Shown one piece after another: positions 10,020 to 39,184 of a stretch of 39,184 nucleotides of DNA. Each line of letters begins with the position of its first letter. Position 1 is the stretch's first letter. Source of the DNA: Nannocystis pusilla (GTDB lineage: Bacteria; Myxococcota_A; Polyangia; Nannocystales; Nannocystaceae); NCBI RefSeq assembly GCF_049337375.1, contig NZ_JBMPIV010000015.1; one strand, 5' to 3'. Position numbers and translations under genes: made by a program. Under the pieces are notes generated by a model. It was given only the letters and a program-made list of their open reading frames with translations, was not told the DNA's origin and did not search any database.

Positions 10020-10745
10020 TCAGCGCTCCTTGATGTGGGTGCCGTCGAAGGTGTGGTCGTTGCCGATGGCCTTGTTGATGACGTCGCGGTGGGCGCTCAC
10101 GTCCCAGCCGAGGCGCGCGAGGCCGGTGAGGATCCGGGTGCGCAGGCGCAGCGAGTCCTCGGCGGGGTTGCCGAGGCGGGCGACCAGCGGGCCGAGCGAG
10201 CGCGGCTCGCCGATGTCGAGCAGCGCCTCGACCGCGAAGAAGCGCACGCCCTCGTCCGGGTCTTCGAGGTAGCCGGCGAGGATGTCCGGGACGCGCGCGT
10301 CGTCGATCTCCTGCAGGTGCGTGAGCAGCTGCAGCTTGGCGCTCGGGTCGCGCTCGTAGCCCGGCGGGTGGTGGGCCAGCAGCGCGTCGAGGATGTCCCA
10401 CTCCTGCTGCTTGCTCGCCAGCTCCTCGACCACCCGCAAGACCCAGGCGATGTTGTCGCTCTGGAGGCAGAACTCCTTGGCCGCCGGCAGCACGGTGTCG
10501 AGCGGGAGGCCGAGCAGGCGCTTGTACAGCCAGCCCTTCTCCTCCTCGTCCTCGATGGACTTGCTGGCGTTCATCGTGAACCGCTTCATCAGGCCGACGA
10601 TCGCCGGGATCTCGGCCATCTCCAGCAGCTGCTCCATCGCGTAGTAGCGGTCGGCCGACTGCGCGTACTGGTTCTGGACGGTCTTGATGTGCTTGTCGAG
10701 CTTGCTCTTGCTGCGACCCGCGCTGCTGAAGAGGTCCTTGAGTCC
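10020..10745 (-). CDS. HEAT-repeat protein (hypothetical)
   Basis: HEAT-like repeats (DPDEGVRFFAVEALLDIGEP). Putative GTG start at about 10745 preceded by GGGGA. The stop lies 7 bp upstream of the carB ATG. The remainder of ORF 10020..11729 is Arg-rich artefact. Confidence 0.5.
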   Translation of the reverse strand, partial: GLKDLFSSAGRSKSKLDKHIKTVQNQYAQSADRYYAMEQLLEMAEIPAIVGLMKRFTMNASKSIEDEEEKGWLYKRLLGLPLDTVLPAAKEFCLQSDNIAWVLRVVEELASKQQEWDILDALLAHHPPGYERDPSAKLQLLTHLQEIDDARVPDILAGYLEDPDEGVRFFAVEALLDIGEPRSLGPLVARLGNPAEDSLRLRTRILTGLARLGWDVSAHRDVINKAIGNDHTFDGTHIKER

Positions 10746-25825: not shown

Positions 25826-28800
25826 TCAGGTGGGCGCGCTGCCGTTGTACATCGCGCTCCACTGGGCGGGGCGGAGGATGGCCCGCGAGGCGAGGTACTG
25901 GTCGGCCTGGGCGATCAAGGTGGCGCCGCCGGGGCCCAGCAGCTCGCCGCGGCGGCGCCGGGCGCAGGCGGCGTGGACCGGCATGTCGGCGGTGTCGAAG
26001 CTGGCGGCGGCGGCCTCGAGGCGGACGAGCGCCTGCTGGATGTCGCCGTTCTGCGCGGCGATGCCGGCCCGGATCAGCGCGGCCATGGCGACGGAGTCGT
26101 GGCGCAGCGCGCGGTCCTCCTCGAGCTGGGCGGCGTCGCGTTCGGCGGCGGCGAGGAGGACGCCGGCGTTGTGCGGCTGCTCGCGGGCGGCCGCGACGGC
26201 GGCGAGGCCCCGCGCGTGGAGGAAGAGGATCCGCTGGCCCTGCCAGCCGAAGATGTACGAGTTCTCGACGGCGACCCAGTTCTCGGCCAGACGCTGCCAG
26301 GCGGAGCCACCTTGCCCTTGGTACAGGTCGCAAGAGGTCTCGAGGAGCAGCGCGAGCATGTGCTGGAAGTGGAAGCCGTCCTTCGACCAGCGGCGCATCG
26401 CCCCGCGCACGCGGTCGCGCGCGCTGGTGATGTCGTCGGCGCCGAGCAGCGCGTAGGCGCTGTAGAGCGCCGACCAGACCTCGCCGCATAGATCGCCGGC
26501 GTCCTCCGACTCGCGCAGCCAGGCGTGGGCGCGGTGGCCGAGCTCGGCCAGCTCGCCGAGCATGAACAGGCCGCGCATCGTGCTCATGCGGGCGAGGTCG
26601 AGCTCCCAGCCGACGCCGACGCAGCGGTCGAGCAGGATCTGGGCGCCCTGCTCGCAGTGCTCGAGCGCGCGGCGCCAGCGGCCGAGCGAGACGGCGGCGA
26701 TGGCGTCGACGATCTCGCACAGGCCGATGAGGCGCGGCTCCGAGAGCTGTTCGGCGAGGCGGCGCGCCTCCTTGAGCAGGGTGGTGCCGCGGCCGACGGC
26801 GTTGGCGGTGCCGCGGCTCATGATCATGGCGCCGACGCCGGCGAGGGCGCGGGCGATCCGCTGCGGCTCACCTGTCTGAAGGGCCAGGAGGAGACCGCGC
26901 TGGTAGAAGCTGTAGCCGCGGATCGGATCGACGAAGGCGAGGCCGACGGCGGCCGACAGGCACACGTCGAGGCGCAGCAGGTCGGCCGGCGGGACCTGCT
27001 CCTCGCGCACCGCGGCGAAGCCGAGGCCGCGCAGGCTGAGCTGCGTCGAGCGAGTGATGATCGACATGTTGGCGCGGCCGGGTGTGGCCGGGTAGCCGAG
27101 GTCGACCTCGACCAGCGCGGGGCGCAGCATCTGCACGCCCTGGTCGATGTTGCCGCTGACGAGGAACTGCTCGCCGGCGCGGCGGCGCAGCTCGAGTGAT
27201 TCGGCCGGCGAGGCGCCCTCGGCGGCGCTGGCGTAGACGGGGGCCGCTTCGGCGCTGCGACCGGCCAGCGCGAGCGCGTCGGCGCGGCGACGCAGGAGGG
27301 CGCGCCGCTCGTCGTCCGGGAGGTCGGACGCCCACGCGAGGGCGCGACCGTACAGCTGGGCGGCGCGGTAGAAGGCGAGTGAAGCGGCGGCCCGCTCGGC
27401 GGCGGCGACGGCGGCACCGTGCGCCTCCTTCAAGGCGCCGGCGGCGTGGAGGTGGTGCGCCAGCAGCTCGGGGTCGTCGGCCGACTGCGCGAGGGCGTCG
27501 GCGAGGGTGCGGTGCAGCTGCGCCAGGCGGTCGCCGCCGAGCTGCGCCAGCACGGTGTCGCGGATCCGGTCGTGGTAGCACTCGACGGTGTCGCCGCTGC
27601 GCGAGGCCAGCGTGCGCAGCAGGTGCTGCGCCTGCAGCTCGCCGAGGACCGCGCGATCGGTGACGCCCGAGGCCGTGAACGCGAGGCTCGGCGGGATCGG
27701 CCGCCCGGCGACGGCGACGATCTCGAGCAGGCTGCGACCGGCGGCGCGCAGGCCGGCGAGGCGGGTGCGCACGACCGCGTCGAGCGAGACCTCGGCCGGC
27801 GCGGCGCCGCGGTGACCGGCGATGTGACGCGCGAGCTCCTCGACGAACAGCGGGTTGCCGCCCGACTCGGCGGCGATCCGGCGCGCCTCGGCGCGCGCGC
27901 TGTCGCTGTCGCGGCCGAGCCGGGCGAGCGCGAGCTCCTCGGCCTGATCGGGCGAGAGCGGCTCGACCAGCAGGTCGCGCACCAGCGCCTTGAGCTCGGG
28001 CCGCGCGCCGAGCCGCCGCAGCTCGCGGAGCATCGGCGCGTCGTCCTCGTCGATGCGGTACGAGCCGATGAAGAGCATCGCCGGCGGATCGGGCGGCGAC
28101 AGCAGCTCGACCAGCAGGCGCGCGCTGTCCTCGTCGCCCCACTGCAGGTCGGCGATCCGCAGCACCAGCGGGCGGCGATCGGCGATCCTCGCCAGCAGCT
28201 CCTTGAGCCCGCGGAAGGCCCGACGCCGCGCCTCTTGCGGGTCGGGGGCGACGAAGTTGCGCTGCGGCAGATCGGCGACCACGGGGGCGCGCGCGAGGAC
28301 GGGGAACAGCCGCGTGAGCTCGTGGATCTCGCGCGGCAGCAGGGCCGCAGCCTCCTCCTGCGGGAGGTGGCGGAGGTGCTGCGCGAGCGCGTCGAGGACG
28401 CTGTCGAAGGCCTTGTACGGCACGCTCTCGCGCTCGTAGCAGCGGCCCTGGAGGACGAAGGCGCGGTCGTTGCGGCGCAGCTCGGCGATGAAGCGATCGA
28501 TGAGCGCGGTCTTGCCGATGCCGGAGCGGCCGCGGACGTACACGCATACCGGCGAGCCGGCGAGCGCGAGCTGGAAGGCGTCGCGCATGGCCGACAGCAG
28601 GTCGTCGCGGCCGACGAAGCGCGCGCCCGACTCGGTGGGCCCGAGCGGGGCCTCGCCGAGGGCCTCGCGGATGTCGGCGCCGCCGAGGCGCGCGGCCGGG
28701 TCGCGCTGCAGCAGGCCCATGCACAGCGCCGCCAGCTCCGGATCGACGTCGGGCACGAGCGCCTGCGGCGGCGCCGGATCTTCGTGCTGCTTGGCGTGGA

Positions 28801-29512
28801 GGATCGCGAGCGGCGGACCGGTGAACGGCAGGCGGCCGGTCAGCGCCTCGTAGAGCATGACGCCGATCGCGTACCAGTCGCTCGCGGGCGAGGCCGGGTT
28901 GCCGGCGGCCTGCTCCGGCGCCATCGTCGCCGGCGTGCCGAGCAGGCCGTCCTCGCCGCCCTCGGCGACGTCGTCGGCGGCGAGGCCGAAGTCGAGGATG
29001 ACGACGCGGCCGTCGGCGGTGACCAGCACGTTCGACGACTTGAGGTCGCGGTGCAGCTTGCCGGCGGCGTGCAGGGCGCTGACGCCGGCGGCCAGCTGCA
29101 GCAGGGCGGGGCGCAGGCGCTCCGGCGGCGGCGCTGCGCCTGGCCTTTCGGACATGCCCTGACGGACATGGTCGACGAAGCTGACGCCGTCGACGAACTC
29201 CATGGTGATGAACCACTCGTCGTCGTGCGAGACGAGCTGGTGGAGGCTGACGAGGTTCGGGTGCGACAGGCCGGCGGCGCTGCGGAACTCGTTCTTGAGG
29301 CGGAACAGCGCGCCCGGGTCGAGCTGGTGCAGGGTCTTGAGCGCGATGGTGCGGCCGCTGTCGCGGTCGACGGCCGCGTACACGACGCCCATGCTGCCGG
29401 AGCCGACCCGACGCACCAGCTCGTAGCGGCCGAGCGGACGCGGAAGGATGTCCTCAGGGACAGGTGGCGTCACCGGCAGCGAGGCGCGGGCCTGGGGCTC
29501 GTCGGGATTCAA
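25826..29512 (-). CDS. Ser/Thr protein kinase fused to an AAA/STAND NTPase and a C-terminal TPR/helical sensor region
   Basis: Hanks kinase motifs (GSGSMGVVYAA, HRDLKSSNVL, DFG, APE). Walker A GRSGIGKT. Long helical C-terminus. TTG start. 1228 aa. Confidence 0.8.
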   Translation of the reverse strand: MNPDEPQARASLPVTPPVPEDILPRPLGRYELVRRVGSGSMGVVYAAVDRDSGRTIALKTLHQLDPGALFRLKNEFRSAAGLSHPNLVSLHQLVSHDDEWFITMEFVDGVSFVDHVRQGMSERPGAAPPPERLRPALLQLAAGVSALHAAGKLHRDLKSSNVLVTADGRVVILDFGLAADDVAEGGEDGLLGTPATMAPEQAAGNPASPASDWYAIGVMLYEALTGRLPFTGPPLAILHAKQHEDPAPPQALVPDVDPELAALCMGLLQRDPAARLGGADIREALGEAPLGPTESGARFVGRDDLLSAMRDAFQLALAGSPVCVYVRGRSGIGKTALIDRFIAELRRNDRAFVLQGRCYERESVPYKAFDSVLDALAQHLRHLPQEEAAALLPREIHELTRLFPVLARAPVVADLPQRNFVAPDPQEARRRAFRGLKELLARIADRRPLVLRIADLQWGDEDSARLLVELLSPPDPPAMLFIGSYRIDEDDAPMLRELRRLGARPELKALVRDLLVEPLSPDQAEELALARLGRDSDSARAEARRIAAESGGNPLFVEELARHIAGHRGAAPAEVSLDAVVRTRLAGLRAAGRSLLEIVAVAGRPIPPSLAFTASGVTDRAVLGELQAQHLLRTLASRSGDTVECYHDRIRDTVLAQLGGDRLAQLHRTLADALAQSADDPELLAHHLHAAGALKEAHGAAVAAAERAAASLAFYRAAQLYGRALAWASDLPDDERRALLRRRADALALAGRSAEAAPVYASAAEGASPAESLELRRRAGEQFLVSGNIDQGVQMLRPALVEVDLGYPATPGRANMSIITRSTQLSLRGLGFAAVREEQVPPADLLRLDVCLSAAVGLAFVDPIRGYSFYQRGLLLALQTGEPQRIARALAGVGAMIMSRGTANAVGRGTTLLKEARRLAEQLSEPRLIGLCEIVDAIAAVSLGRWRRALEHCEQGAQILLDRCVGVGWELDLARMSTMRGLFMLGELAELGHRAHAWLRESEDAGDLCGEVWSALYSAYALLGADDITSARDRVRGAMRRWSKDGFHFQHMLALLLETSCDLYQGQGGSAWQRLAENWVAVENSYIFGWQGQRILFLHARGLAAVAAAREQPHNAGVLLAAAERDAAQLEEDRALRHDSVAMAALIRAGIAAQNGDIQQALVRLEAAAASFDTADMPVHAACARRRRGELLGPGGATLIAQADQYLASRAILRPAQWSAMYNGSAPT

Positions 29513-29525
29513 GGCGGAGCGTGGA

Positions 29526-30680
29526 TTATGCCACGCGCCCGGGGCCCGGGTCGCCGTCCGCGGGCAACGCCCCGGGCGGGACGCCGAGGCCGGGGCCGCA
29601 AAGCCGCGGCAGGTCGGGCGCGAGCCGCTCTTGGCTCCCCGGCGGCATCGGGTCGGCCCGCGTGAGCATGTGGGCGTCGAGGTCGGCCTCGTCGGCGAGG
29701 CGGGCCAGGGCGGCGCCGGCGGCGAGCCCGACGCGGGTCTCGATCATGCAGCCGACGAGCACCCGCAGGCCGCTGTCCCGGGCCGCGGCGATCGTCGCCA
29801 GGGCCGGCGAGATCCCGCCGCACTTCATCAGCTTGACGTTGATCCCCGCGACCCGGCCCCGCAGCGCCGCCACGTCGTCCGGGCCCTGCACGTCCTCGTC
29901 GGCGTAGATCGGCAACGGGCAGTCGCGCGCGAGCGCCGCGAGGAGGTCGGGCCGACCCGCAGGCAGCGGCTGCTCGAGCTGCTCGACCCCGAGATCGACC
30001 AGCAGCGGGAGCAGGGCGCGCACGTCGTCCGGGGTCCAGCCGCCGTTGGCGTCGACCCGCAGGCGGGCGCGCGGCGCGGCGGCGGCGACCGCACTCAGGG
30101 CGGCGCGGTCGAATTCGCGGCCCTTTCCGAGCTTGATCTTGAGCACCGGGAGGTGCGCGGCCGCGGCCGCGCGGGCCGCCATCGCCGGGAGCTCGTCGAG
30201 CGCGATCGTGTAGGAGGTGACGGTCGCCCCCGAGGTGGCCGAAAGGACATGGCGATCGAGACCTGCCCGATCGAGCACGTCGGGATCGGCCAGCAGCTCG
30301 GCCAGCGGGCGGCCGCAGGCGCGGGCGGCGGCGTCCCACAGGGCGGTGTCGACGGCGCAGCGAGCCGCGGAGTGGTCGGGGGCGAGCTCGCGCATGCGCG
30401 GGCCGGCGGCCGCGATCGCGCGCGGGTCGGCGAGGATCTCGGGGGAGAGCTCGGCCGCGATCGCGACCGCCAGCGGCGCGGCAGCGACCGCCGACTGACC
30501 GAGGTAGCGCACGGGCGAGGCCTCACCGAGGCCGCGGCGATCGGGGCCGTCCGCTCCTGCGCCGTCCGGGTCGCCCGGGTCGATGCGCACGAGCAAGCTC
30601 GGCAGTTCGCTCACGGTGCCGCGCGACAGGCCGAACGGGTGGCGCAGGCGGAGCGTGACGAGGGCGGTGCGCAGGTCCAT
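29526..30680 (-). CDS. Enolase-superfamily enzyme (MR/MLE subgroup; dipeptide epimerase / o-succinylbenzoate-synthase-like)
   Basis: KIKLGKG, DANGGWT, EQLEQP, ADE and KLMKCGG catalytic blocks. Internal ATG at 30680. Confidence 0.75.
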   Translation of the reverse strand: MDLRTALVTLRLRHPFGLSRGTVSELPSLLVRIDPGDPDGAGADGPDRRGLGEASPVRYLGQSAVAAAPLAVAIAAELSPEILADPRAIAAAGPRMRELAPDHSAARCAVDTALWDAAARACGRPLAELLADPDVLDRAGLDRHVLSATSGATVTSYTIALDELPAMAARAAAAAHLPVLKIKLGKGREFDRAALSAVAAAAPRARLRVDANGGWTPDDVRALLPLLVDLGVEQLEQPLPAGRPDLLAALARDCPLPIYADEDVQGPDDVAALRGRVAGINVKLMKCGGISPALATIAAARDSGLRVLVGCMIETRVGLAAGAALARLADEADLDAHMLTRADPMPPGSQERLAPDLPRLCGPGLGVPPGALPADGDPGPGRVA

Positions 30681-30732
30681 GCCGGCCGCCCCGGTGTACC
30701 ACCGCCGAGGCGCCATTGTATCGTGGCCCCGC

Positions 30733-32244
30733 ATGCCAGGTCGCCGCCCCGGAGGCTCGTCCCCCAGCGCCGCGCTCGAGCGGCTGTTCGACCGCGACTC
30801 CCCGCTCTCCTATGAGGAGCGGCTGGAGGCCCTCATCCGCGCGGCGCTGCCGGACCAGGTGCCGCGGCTGTCGTTCGGCGACGAGCTGGCGCGCGGCGGG
30901 ATGGGCTCGGTGCGGCTCGCGTTCGACGAGGTGCTGCAGCGGCGGATGGCCGCCAAGGTCATGCACGCCAAGACCTACGACCACCTGATGCTCGTGCACG
31001 GGTTCTTGCGCGAGGCCCAGGTGACCGGTCAGCTCGACCACCCCAACATCGTGCCGATCCACGAGCTCGGGCGCGACGAGCAGGGCCAGCTCTACTTCAC
31101 GATGAAGCTGGTCGAGGGCCAGAGCCTGAAGGCGCTGATCGGCGGCGAACCGGCGACCGACCACGAGCGGCTGTTCCACCGCCTCGAGATCTTCGTCAAG
31201 GTGTGCGACGCGCTGTCGTTCGCCCACAGCCGCGGGGTGATCCACTGCGACATCAAGTCGGCCAACGTGATGGTCGGCGCCTACGGCCAGGTCTATCTGA
31301 TGGACTGGGGCGGGGCCCAGATCCTGCCGCTGCGGTCCGCGGAAGACGAGGCGCGGTGGGTCCGCGACGCCCTGCCGCCGCTGCCGCCGTCGGAGACCGA
31401 CGGGCTGGTGTTCGGCACGCCGTCGTACATGTCGCCCGAGCAGGCCAACAGCCATCCGCTCGATGAGCGGGCCGACGTGTTCTCGATGGGCGCGCTGCTC
31501 TACGAGATGATGGCCGGGCGTCCGCCGTACCAGGCGCGCACGGCGATGGACGCGCTGATCCTCGCGCGCGAGGCGAAGTTCGCCCCGCCCGACAGCCACG
31601 TCGCGGTGCCGTTCCCGCGGGAGCTGGTGCGCATCGTGACCCGGGCGCTGCGCCGCGACCCCGACGATCGCTACCCGAGCGTGGCGGCGCTGCAGGCCGA
31701 CATCGTCCGCCTGCTGCGCGGCAGCGGCAGCTTCCAGACGGTCCGCTTCGCCGCCGGCGACCACGTGATCCGCGAGGGCGAGATCGGCGACGCGGCCTAC
31801 ATCGTGCTGGCCGGCAGGCTCGAGGTCTACAAGCTCGAGGCCGGGCACCACGTGTCGCTGCGCTGGCTCGGGCCGGGCGACGTGTTCGGCGAGACGTCGA
31901 TCTTCGCCGCCTCGCGCCGGACCGCCAGCGTGCTGGTCGTCGAGGACGCGACGCTCACCAAGATCACCAGCGACCTGATCGAGGAGGAGCTGACGTCGAT
32001 GAAGCCGTGGATGGGCGCGTTCGTGCGCACCCTGGCGGCCCGCTTCGCCGGCGTCGAGGGCCGCGGGTCGCGGACCGCCCCCGTCGAGGGCCCGCCGGGC
32101 TCGGTCGCGCCGCGCTCGGTCCCGCCGATCCCGCCGCCGACCAGCTCGGGCGGCGAGAGCGTGATCATCGACATCGACGAGCCGCTCGACGAGAGCATCG
32201 ACGGCAGCGACATGCACGCGACGCTGCTGGCCCGCCGCGACTGA
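30733..32244 (+). CDS. Ser/Thr protein kinase with a C-terminal cyclic-nucleotide-binding domain
   Basis: Kinase motifs (HCDIKSANVM, DWG, SPEQ). C-terminal cNMP-binding domain (FAAGDHVIREGEIGDAAYIVLAGRLEVY...GPGDVFGETS...RTASVLVVED). ATG at 30733, 52 bp from the divergent enolase-family start. Confidence 0.8.
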   Translation: MPGRRPGGSSPSAALERLFDRDSPLSYEERLEALIRAALPDQVPRLSFGDELARGGMGSVRLAFDEVLQRRMAAKVMHAKTYDHLMLVHGFLREAQVTGQLDHPNIVPIHELGRDEQGQLYFTMKLVEGQSLKALIGGEPATDHERLFHRLEIFVKVCDALSFAHSRGVIHCDIKSANVMVGAYGQVYLMDWGGAQILPLRSAEDEARWVRDALPPLPPSETDGLVFGTPSYMSPEQANSHPLDERADVFSMGALLYEMMAGRPPYQARTAMDALILAREAKFAPPDSHVAVPFPRELVRIVTRALRRDPDDRYPSVAALQADIVRLLRGSGSFQTVRFAAGDHVIREGEIGDAAYIVLAGRLEVYKLEAGHHVSLRWLGPGDVFGETSIFAASRRTASVLVVEDATLTKITSDLIEEELTSMKPWMGAFVRTLAARFAGVEGRGSRTAPVEGPPGSVAPRSVPPIPPPTSSGGESVIIDIDEPLDESIDGSDMHATLLARRD

Positions 32245-32400: not shown

Positions 32401-33627
32401 TCAGGCCCGCGCGGGCAGGGAGTCGAGCAGCTCTTGCAGCGCGCGCGGCAGGGCGGTGAAGCGGACCACCGCGCGGCCCGGGCCGGCGGCGACGACCTTG
32501 GCGTAGGCGTCGACGCCGGGCAGGGCGGCGAGGACGAGCTTGAGGTCGGCGCGCAGCGGCAGCGAGGCGGCGACGCGCAGCTCGGCGTTGTGGCGCTCGT
32601 CGTGGGCCACGAGCAGGGCCGGGAACTCCTGGCCGCCGGTGTCCTTGCCCTCGAGCGCCGTGAATACGAGCGGCTGCGGCTCGGCCAGGACCCGCCACTC
32701 GGCGGCCTCTTCGATCATGTGGATGGCGAACGGGCCGTCGACGCCGGTGACGTCGTGGATCGTGATCGGCTCGCGCACGCCCTTGGGCCGGACCTCGAAG
32801 CAGCCGCGGGTGCGGAGGCGGTCGCCGAGGGCTCGCGCGGCCGACTCGGAGATCAGCACCTGGCCGCCGACGGTGTAGCTCTCGATGCGCGAGGTCAGGT
32901 TGACGTGGCGGCCGACCACGCCGTACTTGGCGCGGCGGTTCGAGCCGATGTTGCCGACCACGACCTCGCCGGTGTGGACGCCGATGCCCATCTCGAGCGC
33001 GGGCAGGCCGTGCTCGGCTAGCTCGGCGTTGACGCGGCCCATCGCCCGCTGCATGGCGATCGCGCAGGCGACCGCGCGCTCGGGGTGGTCGTCCTGCGGC
33101 ACCGGGGCGCCGAACACCGCGAGGATGGCGTCGCCGATGAACTCGTTGATCGAGCCGCGGTACTCGCCGATCACGTCGGCCATGGCGCCGAGGTAGATGT
33201 TGAGGATCGCCACCACCTGCTCGGGGCCCAATCCCTCGCACAGGGTCGAGAAGCCGCGCAGGTCGGAGATCAGGATCGTCAGGGTGCGCCGCTCGCCGCC
33301 GAGCTGGCGGCCCTCCGGCGAGGCGAGCAAGGTGTTGACGACCTCGTCGGTGACGTGGCGGCCGAACACCTGGCGGATGAAGGTGTTGCGCAGCTCGAGC
33401 TCGACCACCAGGGCCTCGACTTGCTCGATCTTGACGGCCAGCTGCTCCTCGATCTCGTTGGCGTGCTCGAGCGTCGAGTCGTGCAGCAGCACCAGGTCGT
33501 CGTGCTCGGCCTGCAGCGCGGCGACGGCGGCCATGAACTCGGCGCGCGCGGCCGGGTCGGCCAGGAGCTCGGCCGCGGCGTCGGGGTCGGCGAGGGCTCG
33601 CCGCCAGCGCGGGTCATCCGTGAGCAT
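32401..33627 (-). CDS. Class III adenylate/guanylate cyclase with an N-terminal coiled-coil (signalling helix) region
   Basis: CHD motifs ILISDLRGFSTL, FIGDAILAVFG, GIGVHTGEVVVGNIG and RAKYGVVGRHVNLTSRIES. About 150-aa helical N-terminus. The start is 13 bp after the stop of the SiaC-like gene. Confidence 0.85.
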   Translation of the reverse strand: MLTDDPRWRRALADPDAAAELLADPAARAEFMAAVAALQAEHDDLVLLHDSTLEHANEIEEQLAVKIEQVEALVVELELRNTFIRQVFGRHVTDEVVNTLLASPEGRQLGGERRTLTILISDLRGFSTLCEGLGPEQVVAILNIYLGAMADVIGEYRGSINEFIGDAILAVFGAPVPQDDHPERAVACAIAMQRAMGRVNAELAEHGLPALEMGIGVHTGEVVVGNIGSNRRAKYGVVGRHVNLTSRIESYTVGGQVLISESAARALGDRLRTRGCFEVRPKGVREPITIHDVTGVDGPFAIHMIEEAAEWRVLAEPQPLVFTALEGKDTGGQEFPALLVAHDERHNAELRVAASLPLRADLKLVLAALPGVDAYAKVVAAGPGRAVVRFTALPRALQELLDSLPARA

Positions 33628-33640
33628 GCGGGCGGCCGGC

Positions 33641-34015
33641 TCAGTCGAGGGCGATGACGATCGTCGGCAGGAATTTCTTGAGGTTGGGCAGCGACTTGCC
33701 CTGCCACGGGATGGTCGACGAGCCGTGGACCTTGATCTCGGTCTCGCCCTTCTTGCGCGCGGCGATGGCGAACTTGTAGAGCATGTTGATGCCCGAGCTG
33801 TTCAGGAACTGCAGCTCGGTCATGCGCAGGCCGAGCGCGGGGCTTTCCAGCAGGACGCGGTCGAGCAGGTCCTCGATCGGCTTGTACTCGCTGGTGCTGA
33901 GGCGGAGCACGCCCTCGAAGTGGACCGTGCGCGCGGGCGCGTCGAACCACACGCGATAGCCGGGGCCTTTGATGTCGGTGTCCGACCCGGAGGGTCGCGT
34001 AGTTGTGTCCGTCAT
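33641..34015 (-). CDS. DUF1987 / SiaC-like partner-switch protein
   Basis: 124 aa. FEGVLRLSTSEYKPIEDLL and LRMTELQFLNSSGINMLYKF align with the two conserved DUF1987/SiaC blocks (as recalled: GDSYPENSY...IDWV and LRLLYLNTSSIKAM). ATGA overlap with the upstream kinase gene. Confidence 0.65.
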   Translation of the reverse strand: MTDTTTRPSGSDTDIKGPGYRVWFDAPARTVHFEGVLRLSTSEYKPIEDLLDRVLLESPALGLRMTELQFLNSSGINMLYKFAIAARKKGETEIKVHGSSTIPWQGKSLPNLKKFLPTIVIALD

Positions 34016-34575
34016 GACGATTTCACCTGTAGCCGGGCGGCGGTCTTGAGGAGCGCGTTGTCAGGATTGCCAGGGGCGGGGTCGAAGCGCCAGCCGAGCC
34101 GGGCCTTGTAGTCCGACAGCATGGTGAGAAAGCCCAGGCCCGAGGTCGTGAGTTCGGGGTTGGCGGCGTTCTCCTCGACCCGCTGCATCAGGAGCTCGGC
34201 GGGATCGCCGTCGAGCAGCTCGGCGAACTTGACCCGCAGGCCGTCGACCGCGTCGCCGCACACCTGGTTGCTGACGACGACCACGAACTCGCCCGCCTCG
34301 ACGCCTGCGTCGATGACGACGGTGCCGCCGGCGCAGAACTTGACCGCGTTCTCGATCAGCTCGTTGAGCACGTAGCCGACGCTGCCGACGAAGTCGCGCC
34401 GCTCGGCCTCCTCGGTGAGCCCGCCCTCGCCGACGTCGACGAAGTACTCGGCGAAGAAGTCGGCCGCCACGCTGCACTGGTTCCACTTGACCGGGAACGC
34501 CCCGGGGTAGAACGTCAGCATGACGCGCGGTCCAGCGTCGGTGGGCTCTTTGTACTCGCCGATGATGCCGTCCAT
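34012..34575 (-). CDS. SiaB-like GHKL-fold (RsbW-type) Ser/Thr kinase
   Basis: Internal ATG at 34575 with GGAGAG Shine-Dalgarno. N-box LNELIENAVKF. 187 aa. The N-terminal 53 aa of the ORF-track frame are Arg/Gly artefact. Confidence 0.65.
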   Translation of the reverse strand: MDGIIGEYKEPTDAGPRVMLTFYPGAFPVKWNQCSVAADFFAEYFVDVGEGGLTEEAERRDFVGSVGYVLNELIENAVKFCAGGTVVIDAGVEAGEFVVVVSNQVCGDAVDGLRVKFAELLDGDPAELLMQRVEENAANPELTTSGLGFLTMLSDYKARLGWRFDPAPGNPDNALLKTAARLQVKSS

Positions 34576-34598
34576 ACTCTCCGTCCGCCTCGGGCGCC

Positions 34599-36959
34599 TC
34601 AGCGCCGCTTGATCACCACCGTCGTGATGTCGTCGAAGACCTTCTGCGCGCCGATGAAGCGCATGACGTCGTCGACGATCGCCTGCTTGATGTCCGCCGC
34701 CGGCCGCTCGTGGACCCGGCGCACGACCTCGCACAGGCGGTCGATGCCGTACTGCTCGCCGTGGATGTCCTCCGCCTCGGTTATGCCGTCAGTGTACAGG
34801 ACGACGACATCGCCCGGCGACAGGCGCAGCTCGGTGCGGGCGATGAACGCGGCGATGTCGACCTCGAGGCCCACCGGCATGCCGAGGTCGACCGTGTCGA
34901 TGCGCTCGATCGAGCCGCCCCGCCGGACCACCACCGCCTCCTCGTGCTGCCCGGTGAGGCGCAGCACGCCCTGCGCGTAGTCGAGGAGCACCAGCGTCGC
35001 GGTGCGGTCGAGGCCGACGCGCTGGATGTTCTGGTAGAGGACCTTGTTGACGATGTTGAGGAAGCGCTCCGCGTCGCGCTCCTCGGCGGCCTGCAGGGTG
35101 CGCACGGCCGTCTGGATCATCAGCATCAGCACGCCGCTCTCGAGGCCGTGGCCGGTGACGTCGCCGATGCCGATCTTGACGCCGTCGCCGGCGCGCAGGA
35201 CGTCGTAGTAGTCGCCGCCGACCTCGTCCGCGGGGCGCATGTAGCCGGCGACGTCCAGGCCCTCGAGCTCGGCCAGCTCGCGCTCCTGCGGCAGCACCAT
35301 GAGCTGCAGCCGGCGGGCGACGTCGAGCTCGGCGCCGAGCCGCAGGTTCTCCTGCTTGAGCCGCTCGTTGAGCGCCATGATCTCGCGGGAGGCCCGCTGC
35401 AGCTCGGCGGTGCGCTGCTCGACCAGGCGCTCGAGGTCGTGCGTATACGCGCGGATCTCGGCGGCCATCTGGTTGAAGGCGCGGCCGAGCGCGCCGAACT
35501 CGTCGTCGCTGCGCACTTCGACCCGCACGTCGTAGTCCTTCTGCGCGATCTTGCCGGCGCCCGCGGCGAGGTCGACCAGCGCGCCGGTCATGCGCCGCGA
35601 GACCAGGAGGATCCCGAACATCACGACGGCGAGCGCGACCAATGTGATGACGACCTGGCTGCTGAGGATCCCGCGGCTGCTGGCGGCGATGGTGTCCTGC
35701 GCCTTATGGAGCGAGGCGTAGATCTCGGCGGCCGGCACGACGAAGCCGAGGGTCCAGCGCTCCGGCACGATGTCGGTCGAACCCGACCAGACGTTGAACG
35801 GATCGAGCCGCTTGAGCACGACGACGTAGTCCTTGCCGCCGATCGCTACCGGGTCGCGATAGTCGACGGTGTCGCCGCCGGGCAGCGCGAGCGCCCGGAT
35901 GGCCGGGTCGCGCGACTGGTGCAGGAACTGCTGAAAGATGTCGACGCCGGCGCCCGACGAGCCGCTGGCCTGCTGCAGGCCGAGGATCTCCTGCCCGTCG
36001 GCGTTGACGGCGAACACGTTGCCGTTCTCCTGGGCGAGGAAGGCGAAGCCCGAGCCGGCGAGCTCGAGGTCCTGGACGTAGCGGATCAGTTGGCCGAGGG
36101 TGACGTCGACGCCGACGGCCCCGGCGAAGCGCGCGCGCGAGGCGTCCCACAGCGGCTGAAACATGGTCATGATGGCCCCGCTGCCGCCCGCGTCGGTGTA
36201 CGGCGCGGTGCCGGTGACCTGCGCCGCCGGGTCGCGCATGCGCGCGGGGTCGGCGAGCCAGCGCCGCCAGCCGTCGACGATGCCGGGGAAGTAGAAGCCC
36301 CAGAACGGGCTCTTGTTGTGGCCGGGATAGAGTCGATCGGCGTGGCCGGCTGCGTCGGCGTAGGGGGCGATCCGCAGGTACTCGGCGCCCTCGGGGCCGA
36401 TGAAGTACATGGCCTGCTTCTCGGCCCCGTACTGCAGCAGCGCGGGCAGCAGGAGGTCGAGCAGGGCGGTCTGCTCGACCGCGGCGCGGACCTCGGGCTT
36501 GATGTCCCGAAGGCCAGGTTGATTCGGATCGGCCGGTGCGTGCAGGTAGCCCCACACGGCCACCGCCGACGCCTCGCCGGCCTCGGTCTGCGACCAGTCG
36601 CCCCGCGGGTCGTAGACGAGGGCGTCGCGCAGCGGGCCGGCGGCAGCAGCGGCGGCGGTCAGCGGCGCGAGGTCGGCCTGCTTGTCGATGAGCGTCTGGG
36701 TGACCGCCGCGAGCACGCCGAGCTCGGCCCGCGCCCGCCCGCGCAGGAATTCGACGCGCTGCGCGGTGTCCTCGATGTGGTTGGTGAGGTACTCGCGGCT
36801 GGCCCGCTCGAGGCCCTTGCGGATCTCCTCGGACGCGTCGCCGCCGAGCACGCGGATGCCCTGCAGCGAGGCCAGCGCCGCGAGCGTCAGCCCGATGACC
36901 AGCCCGACCCCGGCGACGAGGACGAACTTGGTGCGGAACTTTGAGCCCTTGGTGGCCAT
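34599..36959 (-). CDS. SiaA-like membrane sensor PP2C (SpoIIE/RsbU-type) phosphatase with periplasmic domain and HAMP
   Basis: TM1 (res 12-30), about 400-aa periplasmic domain, TM2, HAMP plus coiled coil, PP2C motifs (GGDYYDV, GDVTGHG, YTDGITEA, FDDIT). Confidence 0.85.
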   Translation of the reverse strand: MATKGSKFRTKFVLVAGVGLVIGLTLAALASLQGIRVLGGDASEEIRKGLERASREYLTNHIEDTAQRVEFLRGRARAELGVLAAVTQTLIDKQADLAPLTAAAAAAGPLRDALVYDPRGDWSQTEAGEASAVAVWGYLHAPADPNQPGLRDIKPEVRAAVEQTALLDLLLPALLQYGAEKQAMYFIGPEGAEYLRIAPYADAAGHADRLYPGHNKSPFWGFYFPGIVDGWRRWLADPARMRDPAAQVTGTAPYTDAGGSGAIMTMFQPLWDASRARFAGAVGVDVTLGQLIRYVQDLELAGSGFAFLAQENGNVFAVNADGQEILGLQQASGSSGAGVDIFQQFLHQSRDPAIRALALPGGDTVDYRDPVAIGGKDYVVVLKRLDPFNVWSGSTDIVPERWTLGFVVPAAEIYASLHKAQDTIAASSRGILSSQVVITLVALAVVMFGILLVSRRMTGALVDLAAGAGKIAQKDYDVRVEVRSDDEFGALGRAFNQMAAEIRAYTHDLERLVEQRTAELQRASREIMALNERLKQENLRLGAELDVARRLQLMVLPQERELAELEGLDVAGYMRPADEVGGDYYDVLRAGDGVKIGIGDVTGHGLESGVLMLMIQTAVRTLQAAEERDAERFLNIVNKVLYQNIQRVGLDRTATLVLLDYAQGVLRLTGQHEEAVVVRRGGSIERIDTVDLGMPVGLEVDIAAFIARTELRLSPGDVVVLYTDGITEAEDIHGEQYGIDRLCEVVRRVHERPAADIKQAIVDDVMRFIGAQKVFDDITTVVIKRR

Positions 36960-36980
36960 GCGGTCGAGCGGCGAGGGCCG

Positions 36981-38153
36981 TCAGCGCTCCGGTTTGCGGC
37001 CGGAGGCGACGTAGATCGGCCAGGTGGCGAAGCCGCGGCGGCTGCGGATCGCGTAGACGTGATCGCGGAAGCCCATGCGCAGGCGCTCGACCACCTCCGG
37101 CGGCTGCTGCGTGGCGGTCGACAGCTCGCCGGTGACGTACTCCTCCCAGCTCTCGATCACCCGCGCGAAGTCGTCGATCGCGGTGTTGTTGTTGGTGATC
37201 GGGATCTGCTCCATGCGCACGTCCTCGAGGCCCATGTCGGTGAGCTGCGAGAACATCTTGGGCCCGAAGTTCATGTCCATGCCGAGGCTCTGGGCGATCT
37301 TCACGGCCTGCTGGTAGGTCCACGCGACCGACTCGTGGCGCGGGTAGCCGTAGTTGTGCGCCGTCATCTCGTTGGTCAGGTAGACCCGACCGCCGGGTTT
37401 ACAGATCCGCACCAGCTCGCGCAAGATGCTCGACGGGTCGTTGAAGATCTGCAGCGCCAGGCGCGAGGTGACGAAGTCGAAGCTGTTCGACGGCAAGAAC
37501 AGGTGGGTCGCGTCGCCGAACTGATACTCGATGTCGGTGATGCCGAACTCGCGGGCCATCTGCTGCGCGTATTGGAGGAAGGGCCGCGAGTGGTCGACGC
37601 CGACGATGTACGCGGGCTCGAACTCCTTGTAGACGAGCACCGCGAAGTCGCCGATCCCGCAGCAGATGTCGGCGATCCGCATGTGCTTGCCGAGGCCGTG
37701 GCGGCGCAGCAGCTCGCGCTCGTGCGACCACACGATGTTGGTCTGAGTCCGCAGGACCGGCACGAGCTGGTCGTTCTCGATGACGCCCTGGCCGGGGTAA
37801 AACGCCTTGTCGTACTGCTCGACGATGGTGTTGCCGAACTGCGCGCCGAGGAAGCCGAACCGCAGCGGCGCCCACGGGACGACGCTCGAGACGACGAGCT
37901 TGAGCTTGAGGCCCGGGTGGCGCTCGGCGCAGGCGGCGATGAAGCGCGCGAGCTCGAGGAAGCCGGTGTGGTTGAGGTAACGCAGGCGCTTGAAGTTGAG
38001 GTAGAGGACGCCGCGCACGGCGTCGGCGGCGTGGTCGAGGCGCGCCCGCACCGGCGCGAACGCCTCGGGGCCGGCGGGCCGCAGCGTCCCCTCGAGCGCG
38101 ACCTCCTGGTCGTTCTCGCTAAAGCGGATCGAAAACGGTTGCTCGTTCTCCAT
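36981..38153 (-). CDS. DUF1987/SiaC-like N-terminal domain fused to a class I SAM-dependent methyltransferase
   Basis: Residues 1-110 (ALEGTLRP...VLYLNFKRLRYLNHTGFLELARFI) match the same two DUF1987 blocks as CDS 33641..34015. The C-terminal half has MTase motif I (ADICCGIGDFAV) and a post-I/II region (ICKPGGRVYL). Confidence 0.7.
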   Translation of the reverse strand: MENEQPFSIRFSENDQEVALEGTLRPAGPEAFAPVRARLDHAADAVRGVLYLNFKRLRYLNHTGFLELARFIAACAERHPGLKLKLVVSSVVPWAPLRFGFLGAQFGNTIVEQYDKAFYPGQGVIENDQLVPVLRTQTNIVWSHERELLRRHGLGKHMRIADICCGIGDFAVLVYKEFEPAYIVGVDHSRPFLQYAQQMAREFGITDIEYQFGDATHLFLPSNSFDFVTSRLALQIFNDPSSILRELVRICKPGGRVYLTNEMTAHNYGYPRHESVAWTYQQAVKIAQSLGMDMNFGPKMFSQLTDMGLEDVRMEQIPITNNNTAIDDFARVIESWEEYVTGELSTATQQPPEVVERLRMGFRDHVYAIRSRRGFATWPIYVASGRKPER

Positions 38154-38165
38154 ACCCAGCTCGGC

Positions 38166-38672
38166 TCACTCGTGCGGGACGGTAAGGACGATGACGCCGA
38201 CGCCGTCGCCCTCGCGCAGCGCGAGCTCGACGCCGTGGAGCGCGACCAATTCGAGCAGCCCGACCTCGGCCGGCGGACGCAGGATCATCGACTCGAACTC
38301 GGCCTCGTAGCGAGCGCGCGCGTCCGCCGGCGCGACCCGCCCGAGGTCGTCGCGCAGCCGCTGCGCGAGCGCCTCGTCGGTCGGTATCGTCAGCTCGGCG
38401 ATCACGTGCTCGTCGGTGCGCCCGACCTCGACCACGATCTCGCCCTCGCTCGGCCGGGCGCGGAACACGTACTCGAGCACCTCGTTGAGATAGGTCGAGA
38501 GGCGCGTGGTCAGCTGCTCGGGATCGAAGCGATCGGAGGCGACGAAGCGCGCGATGTAATCGGCCAGCCGCTGGCAGTGCGTCCAGCTGTCATAGAGGCC
38601 GCGGACGCTGATCCGGAGGGTGAGGATCGGGCTCGGGCCGGGAGGTGAGGGGGGCGCGAGGTCGGAGGTCAT
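38166..38672 (-). CDS. SiaB-like paralog with a degenerate ATP-binding N-box (candidate pseudokinase / binding partner)
   Basis: Co-linear similarity with CDS 34012..34575 (LTLRISV..C..LADYIARFV...STYLNEVLEYVFRA), but the N-box Asn is replaced (ELIENAVKF versus EVLEYVFRA). The start is uncertain: ATG at 38672 or GTG at 38708. Confidence 0.45.
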   Translation of the reverse strand: MTSDLAPPSPPGPSPILTLRISVRGLYDSWTHCQRLADYIARFVASDRFDPEQLTTRLSTYLNEVLEYVFRARPSEGEIVVEVGRTDEHVIAELTIPTDEALAQRLRDDLGRVAPADARARYEAEFESMILRPPAEVGLLELVALHGVELALREGDGVGVIVLTVPHE

Positions 38673-38940
38673 GCCGGGGCGAGGGCGGGAGAGGGGCAGC
38701 AGGCGCACCTCGCCCGGATCCGGGCACGGACGGCGCCTCGGTTCACGGTATCACGAAGCCGTCGCGGCCGGCCGCGAGCCGCGGACGCGTGGCCGGACGC
38801 AGGGGCGCGCCGGAGCCCGGGTCCGCGCGCGGACGTGCGCCGGCGCAGACGGCCCGCGCGGGCGCGAAAAAAGCTCGCGGGCCTCGGGAACAAGCCCCAA
38901 AGGGCCGTGTCCGAGGCGCCACACGACCGGGGCAAGGACG

Positions 38941-39184
38941 ATGACAACGACCAAGACGCTCGCCATCAAAGTCTTTTACGGCGATCAGCTCGTCGATACG
39001 CAGACGCTGACGCAAGACGTTATCAAGATCGGAAAACTGAAGAGTAGCCACATCTGTCTGGATGACGAGGCCGTGGCCCGCATGCACGCCGTGATCGAGG
39101 TGTCCGGCGAAGAGGTGCGGGTGATCGATCTCGGGAGCGCGGCGGGCACCGTGCTCAACGGCCAGCGGATCGACAAGAACGCGG
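38941..39184 (+). CDS. FHA-domain protein, N-terminal part; the gene continues past the window end
   Basis: MTTTKTLAIKVFYGDQLVDTQTLTQDVIKIGKLKSSHICLDDEAVARMHAVIEVSGEEVRVIDLGSAAGTVLNGQRI is a canonical FHA fold signature (R..H, S, NGT-like, NG). AAGGA Shine-Dalgarno before the ATG. Confidence 0.7.
   Translation, partial: MTTTKTLAIKVFYGDQLVDTQTLTQDVIKIGKLKSSHICLDDEAVARMHAVIEVSGEEVRVIDLGSAAGTVLNGQRIDKNA

Follow-up and report, generated by a model that had tools for sequence, protein, structure and literature searches.

The window analysed here, a stretch of 39,184 nucleotides from the soil bacterium Nannocystis pusilla, carries on its minus strand six genes, placed head to tail between positions 32401 and 38672, that encode a real, conserved partner switch of an uncharacterised family, which probably controls the synthesis of cyclic GMP (cGMP). 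More specifically, we lean, if modestly, towards a switch of the slr1658/slr1659 family that in Nannocystis has a guanylate cyclase of Cya2 type as its output. The first gene encodes an slr1658-type pseudokinase paralogue (38166..38672; 168 aa from its ATG, the longest open reading frame (ORF) beginning with a GTG at 38708). It is followed by a fusion of a STAS/SiaC-like domain with a class I S-adenosylmethionine (SAM) methyltransferase (36981..38153; 390 aa), a membrane sensor PP2C phosphatase (34599..36959; 786 aa), a predicted GHKL serine kinase of the slr1658 family (34012..34575; 187 aa from an ATG behind GGAGAG, with a longest ORF of 240 aa that overlaps the phosphatase gene), a predicted STAS/SiaC-like phospho-switch protein of the slr1659 family (33641..34015; 124 aa) and a class III cyclase of Cya2 type, predicted to be a guanylate cyclase (32401..33627; 408 aa). 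Start codons were chosen to fit the homologues. Gaps of 12, 21, 23 and 13 nt separate the genes, the last of these preceding the cyclase gene, and at the fourth junction two genes overlap by ATGA (34012-34015). Since no gap exceeds 23 nt and one junction overlaps, the six genes are likely to be co-expressed. A first-pass annotation of this DNA had read the same genes and junctions, as well as the loop motifs FLNSSG and YLNHTG, and all are present as it described them.

The cyclase consists of an N-terminal helix, a cyclase transducer element, a cyclase homology domain (aa 115-283; Pfam Guanylate_cyc, E 4e-26) and a C-terminal extension of about 100 residues. Its top match among PDB sequences is Cya2 (2w01; E 1.5e-69); across 198 aa the two are 57% identical, and their alignment has the same residues at all eight functional positions (D/E/D/K-Y-G/N/R). 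The Glu of its NEFIGD motif corresponds to Cya2 E488, while KYGVVG provides the Lys-Tyr-Gly, its Gly corresponding to G562. The six Nannocystis species loci of the survey (L009-L014) and four loci fetched earlier have the same eight residues. In Cya2, roles have been described for the metal-binding Asp, the Glu-Gly pair, the supporting Lys and Tyr, the Asn and the Arg (PMC6005667); the preference for GTP and the Glu-Gly pair are documented (PMC6005667, PMC5995499), and the single change E488K makes it an adenylate cyclase (PMC5995499). Given the 57% identity and the retention of every specificity and catalytic residue, the product is predicted to be cGMP, not cAMP. The catalytic residues being intact, the earlier proposal of a cAMP/cGMP output holds as far as a cyclase output goes and is narrowed to a Cya2-like enzyme. 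Cassette-linked cyclases of other phyla have Lys with Thr or Asp at the specificity positions, the adenylate type. In a Nannocystis sp. metagenome-assembled genome (MAG; JADKFZ010000007.1), a second, diverged operon adjoins the main one (L002:522-5090, minus strand). It encodes a GRAS-family (Rossmann-like) protein, a 177-aa protein without matches, a small PP2C resembling SiaA, weak relatives of slr1658 and of slr1659, and a cyclase domain; in an ORF-based alignment the latter has S and H, not N and R, at the transition-state positions and may be catalytically degenerate. The existence of this operon counts in favour of a link between switch and cyclase.

That the switch acts on the cyclase is best supported by an acidic coiled-coil motif shared by genes beside such cassettes, together with the transducer element that adjoins it here. 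The motif, the proposed docking site, occupies aa 30-77 of the cyclase (33397..33540, minus strand; EFMAAVAALQAEHDDLVLLHDSTLEHANEIEEQLAVKIEQVEALVVEL), has an isoelectric point (pI) of 4.45 and a net charge of -7, and runs directly into the transducer element (FGRH...), the point of input for cis-acting sensors in other cyclases. L45, T52, E54, H55 and L63 are conserved, with T52-x-E54-H55 forming a polar patch. The consensus, L..E...L..E..DL..L.E.T.EH...IE.(E/Q)L, extends over about 35-48 aa; the alignment of 26 proteins is gapless, with an invariant His and the hydrophobic residues in a heptad pattern. By Pfam, the carriers are cyclases with or without a PAS domain, small PP2Cs, histidine kinases (of which one is fused to a receiver domain and one is a PAS-histidine kinase) and one HAMP protein; no Pfam family covered the motif itself in these scans. 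Among the 7922 ORFs of 88 loci there are 55 carriers, and 54 of them abut an slr1658/slr1659 cassette, either downstream of the slr1659 gene at a distance of 0-282 nt or immediately ahead of the first gene of the cassette; in cyanobacteria they can sit directly before the kinase gene. The cyclase is the sole motif-bearing ORF of the window. Sites elsewhere include L020:10562-10705, L040:4827-4970 (minus strand), L075:1278-1421, and L088:7363-7506 and 10466-10609. A census of the motif alignment against 5.8 billion proteins returned one match, the 48-residue profile being too short to reach significance there. The N-terminal helix, suggested before as the control site of the cyclase, is thus a conserved module common to other cassette-adjacent enzymes and fits a docking site.

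To see the cyclase in context, the distribution of the cassette was surveyed. An exhaustive protein search gave 767 clusters at 50% identity for the slr1659 family, and an slr1659 alignment scan of species-representative genomes found at least 589 loci, 80 of which, from 34 taxon groups, were fetched and annotated with profiles built from the proteins of the window. A five-gene core of pseudokinase, STAS-like::methyltransferase, dCache-HAMP-PP2C phosphatase, kinase and STAS-like protein is present in 47-48 of the 80 loci and in 21 of the 34 taxon groups, which belong to several phyla. Carriers include Nannocystis, Sorangium, Polyangium, Mesorhizobium, Rhizobium, Labrys, Acetobacteraceae, Rhodanobacteraceae, Desulfobacteraceae, Chthoniobacter and Anaerolineales. 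Four Nannocystis species have all six genes in this order, and two further Nannocystis MAGs carry the set, but with no phosphatase gene between those for methyltransferase and kinase. Because the order is kept in four species and the core in 21 of 34 groups, the six-gene arrangement is not a chance one. Cyanobacterial loci have PP2C, kinase and STAS genes, or kinase and STAS genes alone, without the pseudokinase/methyltransferase pair. The widespread core thus includes the methyltransferase pair, with the cyclase as a variable add-on, and not the other way round. In Mesorhizobium sp. INR15, a DDE transposase lies between the kinase and slr1659 genes of an otherwise complete core (L006:8619-9959), and a GGDEF-EAL gene is located just upstream of the cassette on the same strand.

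The neighbours of the cassette are interchangeable. The survey of neighbours that the first-pass annotation had proposed found cyclases, small PP2Cs and histidine kinases beside it. A motif-bearing neighbour is present at 47 of the 80 loci and in 16 of the 34 groups; by class, cyclases account for nine groups, PP2Cs for ten, histidine kinases for three and other proteins for three. No GGDEF output was seen among the 80 loci, and motif-less loci yielded no further output class; the genes adjacent to the cassette there are unrelated ones by Pfam, such as those for an Omp85/ShlB transporter, ChpXY or a periplasmic binding protein. The cyclase might then be a passenger of the operon with a regulation of its own, for instance through the C-terminal extension, and the true output the methyltransferase or a distant target. 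The unrelated neighbours fit such a reading, as does a core that often lacks a nearby cyclase. So does the slr1658 mutant of Synechocystis (Zer et al. 2018, Plant J 93:235), which according to citing papers recovers slowly from iron starvation and has a transcriptional phenotype, with pgr5 derepressed about 1000-fold. We nevertheless judge this improbable: the cyclase shares its motif with PP2Cs and histidine kinases only beside cassettes, in several phyla; its gene is just 13 nt from the slr1659-type gene; and the gene right after the slr1659 one encodes a cyclase in at least four lineages unrelated to each other (Nannocystis, a Chloroflexaceae MAG, Microcoleus and Coleofasciculus), while in five more a cyclase abuts the cassette.

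A broader reading can be built on the same observations, which we put forward tentatively and hold for possible without counting on it. The slr1658/slr1659 pair would be a widespread modular switch, and the acidic N-terminal helix (DL..L.E.T.EH...IE.(E/Q)L) a universal docking socket for guanylate and adenylate cyclases, PP2Cs and histidine kinases. It may extend over Myxococcota, Proteobacteria, Cyanobacteria, Chloroflexota and Verrucomicrobiota. In Nannocystis, a periplasmic signal would be turned into cGMP and passed on to a cGMP-binding Ser/Thr kinase, with a pseudokinase-controlled methyltransferase arm alongside.

The 124-aa protein belongs to the slr1659 superfamily (NCBIfam slr1659_superfam, 123.9 bits; cut-off 100), and UniRef and NCBI label its homologues 'slr1659 superfamily regulator'. 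It had been assigned to DUF1987, with SiaB-type kinases as partners. At profile level that assignment is formally refuted: Pfam DUF1987 matches neither this protein nor the N-terminal domain of the methyltransferase fusion, even at E<=10, and the kinase and the 124-aa protein are members of the slr1658 and slr1659 superfamilies instead. The sole Pfam match of the 124-aa protein is a weak one to STAS (E 0.02, below threshold), and single-sequence searches of this protein and the kinase against PDB sequences gave chance matches only. In the AlphaFold2 (AF2) model of the 124-aa protein, which has a pLDDT of 92.1, residue 73 is the first of helix alpha2. In a Foldseek search of the PDB, the top eight matches are SiaC (E 4e-6 to 4e-5, TM-score 0.64-0.68); STAS proteins rank lower, the anti-sigma antagonists having E>=1e-3.

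The loop FLNSSG comprises aa 70-75 and contains the predicted acceptor Ser73 (codon 33797-33799). It is invariant in 65 of 65 distinct standalone slr1659 homologues. In SiaC, the acceptor T68 lies within N67-T68-S69, at the amino-terminus of helix alpha2 (PMC8457831), as the first-pass annotation had it. In the modelled structure, N72-S73-S74 would form the equivalent N-(S/T)-S acceptor turn at the start of helix alpha2, with S73 at the place of the SiaC phosphosite and F70-L-N72-S73-S74-G-I76 spaced like Y65/N67/T68/S69/I71 of SiaC. The family profile aligns FLNSSG with FMDSSG of SpoIIAA, which we take to be the site of Ser58 phosphorylation. Members of the slr1659 family are basic (median pI 9.1), and K81, R87, K88, K107, K113 and K114 are conserved among them. 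Proteins from metagenomes and cyanobacteria (P0236-P0240, of 230-249 aa with two matched stretches, and L082:4538-5230) contain a tandem duplication of the slr1659-type domain.

The 187-aa kinase scores 141.8 bits with the slr1658_superfam model (NCBIfam; cut-off 100), and is a member of that superfamily; with the cyanobacterial slr1658 equivalog model it reaches 112.8 bits, under the cut-off of 200. Matches to HATPase_c, DUF6272 and the SiaB family are all below threshold, so that it falls outside the SiaB family as curated (NF038262, cut-off 85 bits). It retains E-x3-N and SGLG, and in the orthologue alignment the true kinases always keep NEL.ENA.KF and SGLG. Fold searches give it the fold of the anti-sigma kinases UsfX, SpoIIAB and RsbW, with SiaB among its nearest solved relatives. 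It is a fair statement that kinase and 124-aa protein are structural sisters of SiaB and SiaC, filed separately by curated models. With SiaC and SiaB as nearest solved relatives and SiaA as the top curated family of the phosphatase, the partner switch of PP2C, kinase and STAS-like protein proposed at first pass survives this change of family.

Which of the two proteins would bind the cyclase helix is a matter of weighing. RsbT of the Bacillus sigma-B pathway docks on a helical domain at the N-terminus of the PP2C RsbU, and by that logic the kinase would dock on the cyclase helix and activate the enzyme, the unphosphorylated slr1659 protein merely sequestering the kinase. This is the main rival explanation, and we give it a minor share of our credence. 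It draws on the fold that the kinase has in common with UsfX, SpoIIAB and RsbW, which bind their outputs, and on the commonest neighbours of the cassette, motif-bearing small PP2Cs with a second kinase/STAS pair (10 of 34 groups), an arrangement that mirrors the two-module sigma-B cascade. Motif-bearing PP2Cs of Sorangium and Polyangium precede such a second pair; those of Mesorhizobium and Rhizobium are divergent neighbours. Sorangium also provides an argument in the other direction. In Sorangium cellulosum So ce56 (L020:9437-10354), kinase and STAS-like protein are fused in a single chain of 305 aa with an NERSR linker, followed by a motif-bearing small PP2C and then by the second, diverged kinase/STAS pair; the region after that pair has no Pfam match. 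The fusion ORF is also found at 15 other Sorangium, three Polyangium and one Polyangiaceae loci, and fusions of 305-320 aa make up several database clusters. Such covalent fusions are hard to square with release of the kinase. In addition, the kinase family and the motif are both strongly acidic (pI about 4.5 each) and the slr1659 protein is basic, and its closest solved relative, SiaC, is itself an output binder that attaches to the stalk of SiaD (PMC8457831). On these three grounds we infer that the small protein, not the kinase, is the favoured binder of the helix.

The phosphatase is organized as a transmembrane segment, a periplasmic dCache-like domain, a second transmembrane segment, HAMP, a coiled coil and a PP2C domain of SpoIIE type. 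Pfam identifies SpoIIE (E 9e-39, aa 592-785) and HAMP (E 3e-13, aa 452-504), with a weak match to dCache_1, and the PP2C metal motifs GDVTGHG, DGITE and DDITT are seen in the translation. The top NCBIfam model is SiaA (NF038263, an equivalog), at 116 bits versus a cut-off of 700; the protein is thus not classed as a SiaA orthologue, and the match spans aa 431-781, the part from the second transmembrane segment through HAMP to PP2C. The gene is an intact ORF of 786 aa here and in N. punicea (L012); N. exedens (L010) and N. radixulma (L011) likewise have it in one piece, with ORF calls of 907 and 790 aa. In two N. pusilla assemblies it looks split by frameshifts (L005:7540-9923 and L009:6695-9418), which could be an assembly error or a strain-specific pseudogene, and in CP185339.1 only a 175-aa SpoIIE fragment is called.

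The first two genes form a separate arm. The 168-aa protein matches slr1658_superfam with E 5e-9 and 35.8 bits, under the cut-off of 100. In its N-box, NEVLEYVFRA, a Tyr stands at the position of the Mg-binding Asn, and EVGLLEL takes the place of SGLG. Essentially all orthologues encoded before the fusion gene share both losses, with A, V, T, Y or L at the Asn position and no SGLG, but keep the fold-defining NE..E. The fusion protein starts with a domain (aa 1-94; 37872-38153) that is 27% identical to the 124-aa protein and matches slr1659_superfam over aa 5-94 (E 8e-11; 42.2 bits, again under the cut-off of 100). The methyltransferase follows at aa ~128-270 (Methyltransf_11/25/31 and UbiE models), with a C-terminal extension beyond it; its top PDB relative is LahSB (6uak, E 4e-17), a peptide carboxyl O-methyltransferase.

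In the YLNHTG loop of the fused domain, the acceptor position is occupied by His. Among 44 distinct orthologues this position is mostly H, N or F, with Ser in three, and the next residue is T, V, I, L or A; the loop reads YMNNVA in Sorangium and RLNNIA in Mesorhizobium. The earlier observation that both loops keep a Ser or Thr is therefore borne out for the invariant FLNSSG of the standalone proteins, and not for YLNHTG, whose Thr is not conserved among the 44. Likewise, the SiaB-like partner described for the methyltransferase does exist as an upstream kinase paralogue, but one that is a conserved pseudokinase. Since the fused domain has no conserved acceptor and its partner no Mg-binding Asn, the methyltransferase arm is not gated by phosphorylation, and the notion of one phosphatase gating two outputs in this way fails for the methyltransferase. 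Judging from these residues, the 168-aa protein and the fused STAS-like domain are a binding pair rather than a kinase and its substrate.

In the mechanism that we propose, the dCache-HAMP-PP2C phosphatase would read a periplasmic signal, which would set the balance between phosphatase and kinase on Ser73 of the 124-aa protein. The unphosphorylated, basic slr1659 protein would leave the acidic kinase and bind the cyclase helix at aa 30-77, through the T52-x-E54-H55 patch. That helix lies just ahead of the transducer element. Binding there would alter the activity of the cyclase dimer; phosphoserine would prevent the binding. The predicted cGMP would probably be read by a kinase with a cyclic nucleotide-binding (cNMP-binding) domain encoded next to the cluster. 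The pseudokinase and the STAS-like::methyltransferase would make up a second, phosphorylation-independent arm that is part of the conserved core; the arms may be coupled if the two STAS-like domains compete for the pseudokinase.

Several points weigh against this picture. Many genomes (Mesorhizobium, Labrys, Aminobacter) have the core with no cyclase at all, and 18 of the 34 taxon groups have no motif-bearing neighbour. The G1 box of the kinase has Asn where GHKL enzymes have Asp, making its use of ATP putative. The likeness to SiaC and SiaD appears to be one of fold alone, DUF1987 being absent and the SiaA and SiaB models scoring far under their cut-offs. The charge argument for the small protein as binder is weak, and the cGMP assignment is by sequence only. 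What the analysis shows is the order of the genes, the domains and folds of their products, conserved residues, synteny and the common motif; we infer all steps of binding and phosphorylation, the sign of the regulation and which nucleotide is made.

The candidate receiver of the cyclase product, by synteny only, is a Ser/Thr protein kinase with a C-terminal cNMP-binding domain (30583..32244, plus strand; Pfam Pkinase E 2e-37, cNMP_binding E 1e-17), convergent to the cyclase gene. It has the phosphate-binding cassette FGE...SRRTAS, and is found in the same place at all six Nannocystis species loci of the survey (L009-L014) and at four of five Nannocystis loci fetched earlier (L001-L003 and L005). 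A cyclase beside a protein with a cNMP-binding domain also recalls the Pycsar antiphage modules, which pair a pyrimidine cyclase with an effector that joins a cNMP-binding domain to a killing domain; in that case a pyrimidine cyclic nucleotide would be made. The cyclase indeed matches PADLOC models of PycC (best E 2.8e-28) and the neighbouring kinase those of the PD-T4-6 and mad6 kinases. These matches reflect generic similarity among cyclase homology domains and Ser/Thr kinases; the five upstream genes have no PADLOC match save a generic methyltransferase one, the residues that specify a purine are identical to those of Cya2, to which the cyclase is 57% identical, and the locus is syntenic across Nannocystis species, amid housekeeping genes and without marks of mobile elements. 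We consider the defence reading very improbable and set it aside; the specificity residues are those of Cya2, and the neighbour with the cNMP-binding domain is a Ser/Thr kinase.

The intergenic region of 272 nt between the first gene of the cluster and a divergent FHA-domain gene (38673..38944) is the presumed operon promoter. A scan of this region for the sigma-70 consensus gave no match, and a promoter and terminator scan found no terminator-like site on the minus strand within the cluster; both scans are uninformative at the G+C content of this DNA, about 72%. The products of the cluster are 98-99% identical to Nannocystis pusilla proteins. The divergent gene, whose start lies at 38945-39184 (plus strand), is also annotated as an FHA gene in the N. 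pusilla locus L005. As another flanking signalling gene, at 25826-29512 (minus strand), a 1228-aa Ser/Thr kinase with an AAA_16 domain is encoded, the orthologue of which is annotated in L005. A sigma factor as output was considered and rejected: no sigma-factor domain is present in the six products or the flanking genes scanned.

In bacteria, cGMP signalling is rare and little understood. A signal-controlled guanylate cyclase next to a candidate cGMP-binding kinase would offer a tractable case in myxobacteria. New here is the wiring of a partner switch to a Cya2-type guanylate cyclase, the partner-switch principle itself being known; the shared docking helix and the pseudokinase-methyltransferase arm look undescribed. 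The literature searched contained nothing equivalent on partner switches tied to class III cyclases, no mechanistic work on slr1658/slr1659, no link of these to a cyclase or docking helix, and no paper mentioning DUF6272. The family is known only through one cyanobacterial mutant phenotype, in spite of its at least 589 loci and 767 clusters, and later authors state that the signalling chain of slr1658 is not known. The shared N-terminal helix provides a hypothesis, testable by mutation, of how one switch is wired to many classes of enzyme. If true, the principle of SiaC and SiaD, a STAS-like protein clamping a stalk helix, extends beyond cyclic di-GMP.

The SiaABCD system of Pseudomonas aeruginosa consists of the PP2C SiaA, the kinase SiaB, the DUF1987 protein SiaC (PMC8457831) and the diguanylate cyclase SiaD. 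The Nannocystis cluster resembles it in its sensor-HAMP-PP2C phosphatase, for which SiaA is the top curated family, in a small protein with SiaC as its nearest solved structure and an N-(S/T)-S acceptor turn at the start of helix alpha2, and in having as output a nucleotide cyclase that is a dimer and carries an N-terminal helix. It differs in that its proteins stay below the thresholds of the DUF1987, SiaB and SiaA profiles and that the periplasmic domain resembles dCache. The cyclase is of class III and Cya2 type, with no GGDEF domain in the six products scanned with Pfam; an extra pair of pseudokinase and STAS-like::methyltransferase is present, and the gene order is another one. By curated models, the closest known relatives are slr1658 and slr1659 of Synechocystis PCC 6803 (NF047703 and NF047705), which are of the same family; as in cyanobacterial loci, the kinase and STAS-like genes are adjacent, and in several of those they also lie beside a sensor PP2C.

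With the classical switches SpoIIE/SpoIIAA/SpoIIAB and RsbU/RsbV/RsbW the cluster shares a PP2C, a GHKL Ser-kinase and a STAS-fold protein with a conserved acceptor Ser, and the two-module cascades of Sorangium resemble the sigma-B pathway. Unlike those switches, it has enzymes as outputs and no sigma factor, and its small protein is matched by Pfam STAS with an E of only 0.02; the kinase is about 50 residues longer than classical STAS kinases, with an unusual G1 region. The cyclase, finally, is like Cya2 (Sll0646, PDB 2W01) in its catalytic domain, the eight functional residues and the FGR(H/Y) transducer element. Cya2 is regulated by a CHASE2 membrane sensor in cis; here its place is taken by the soluble coiled-coil motif, presumably addressed in trans.

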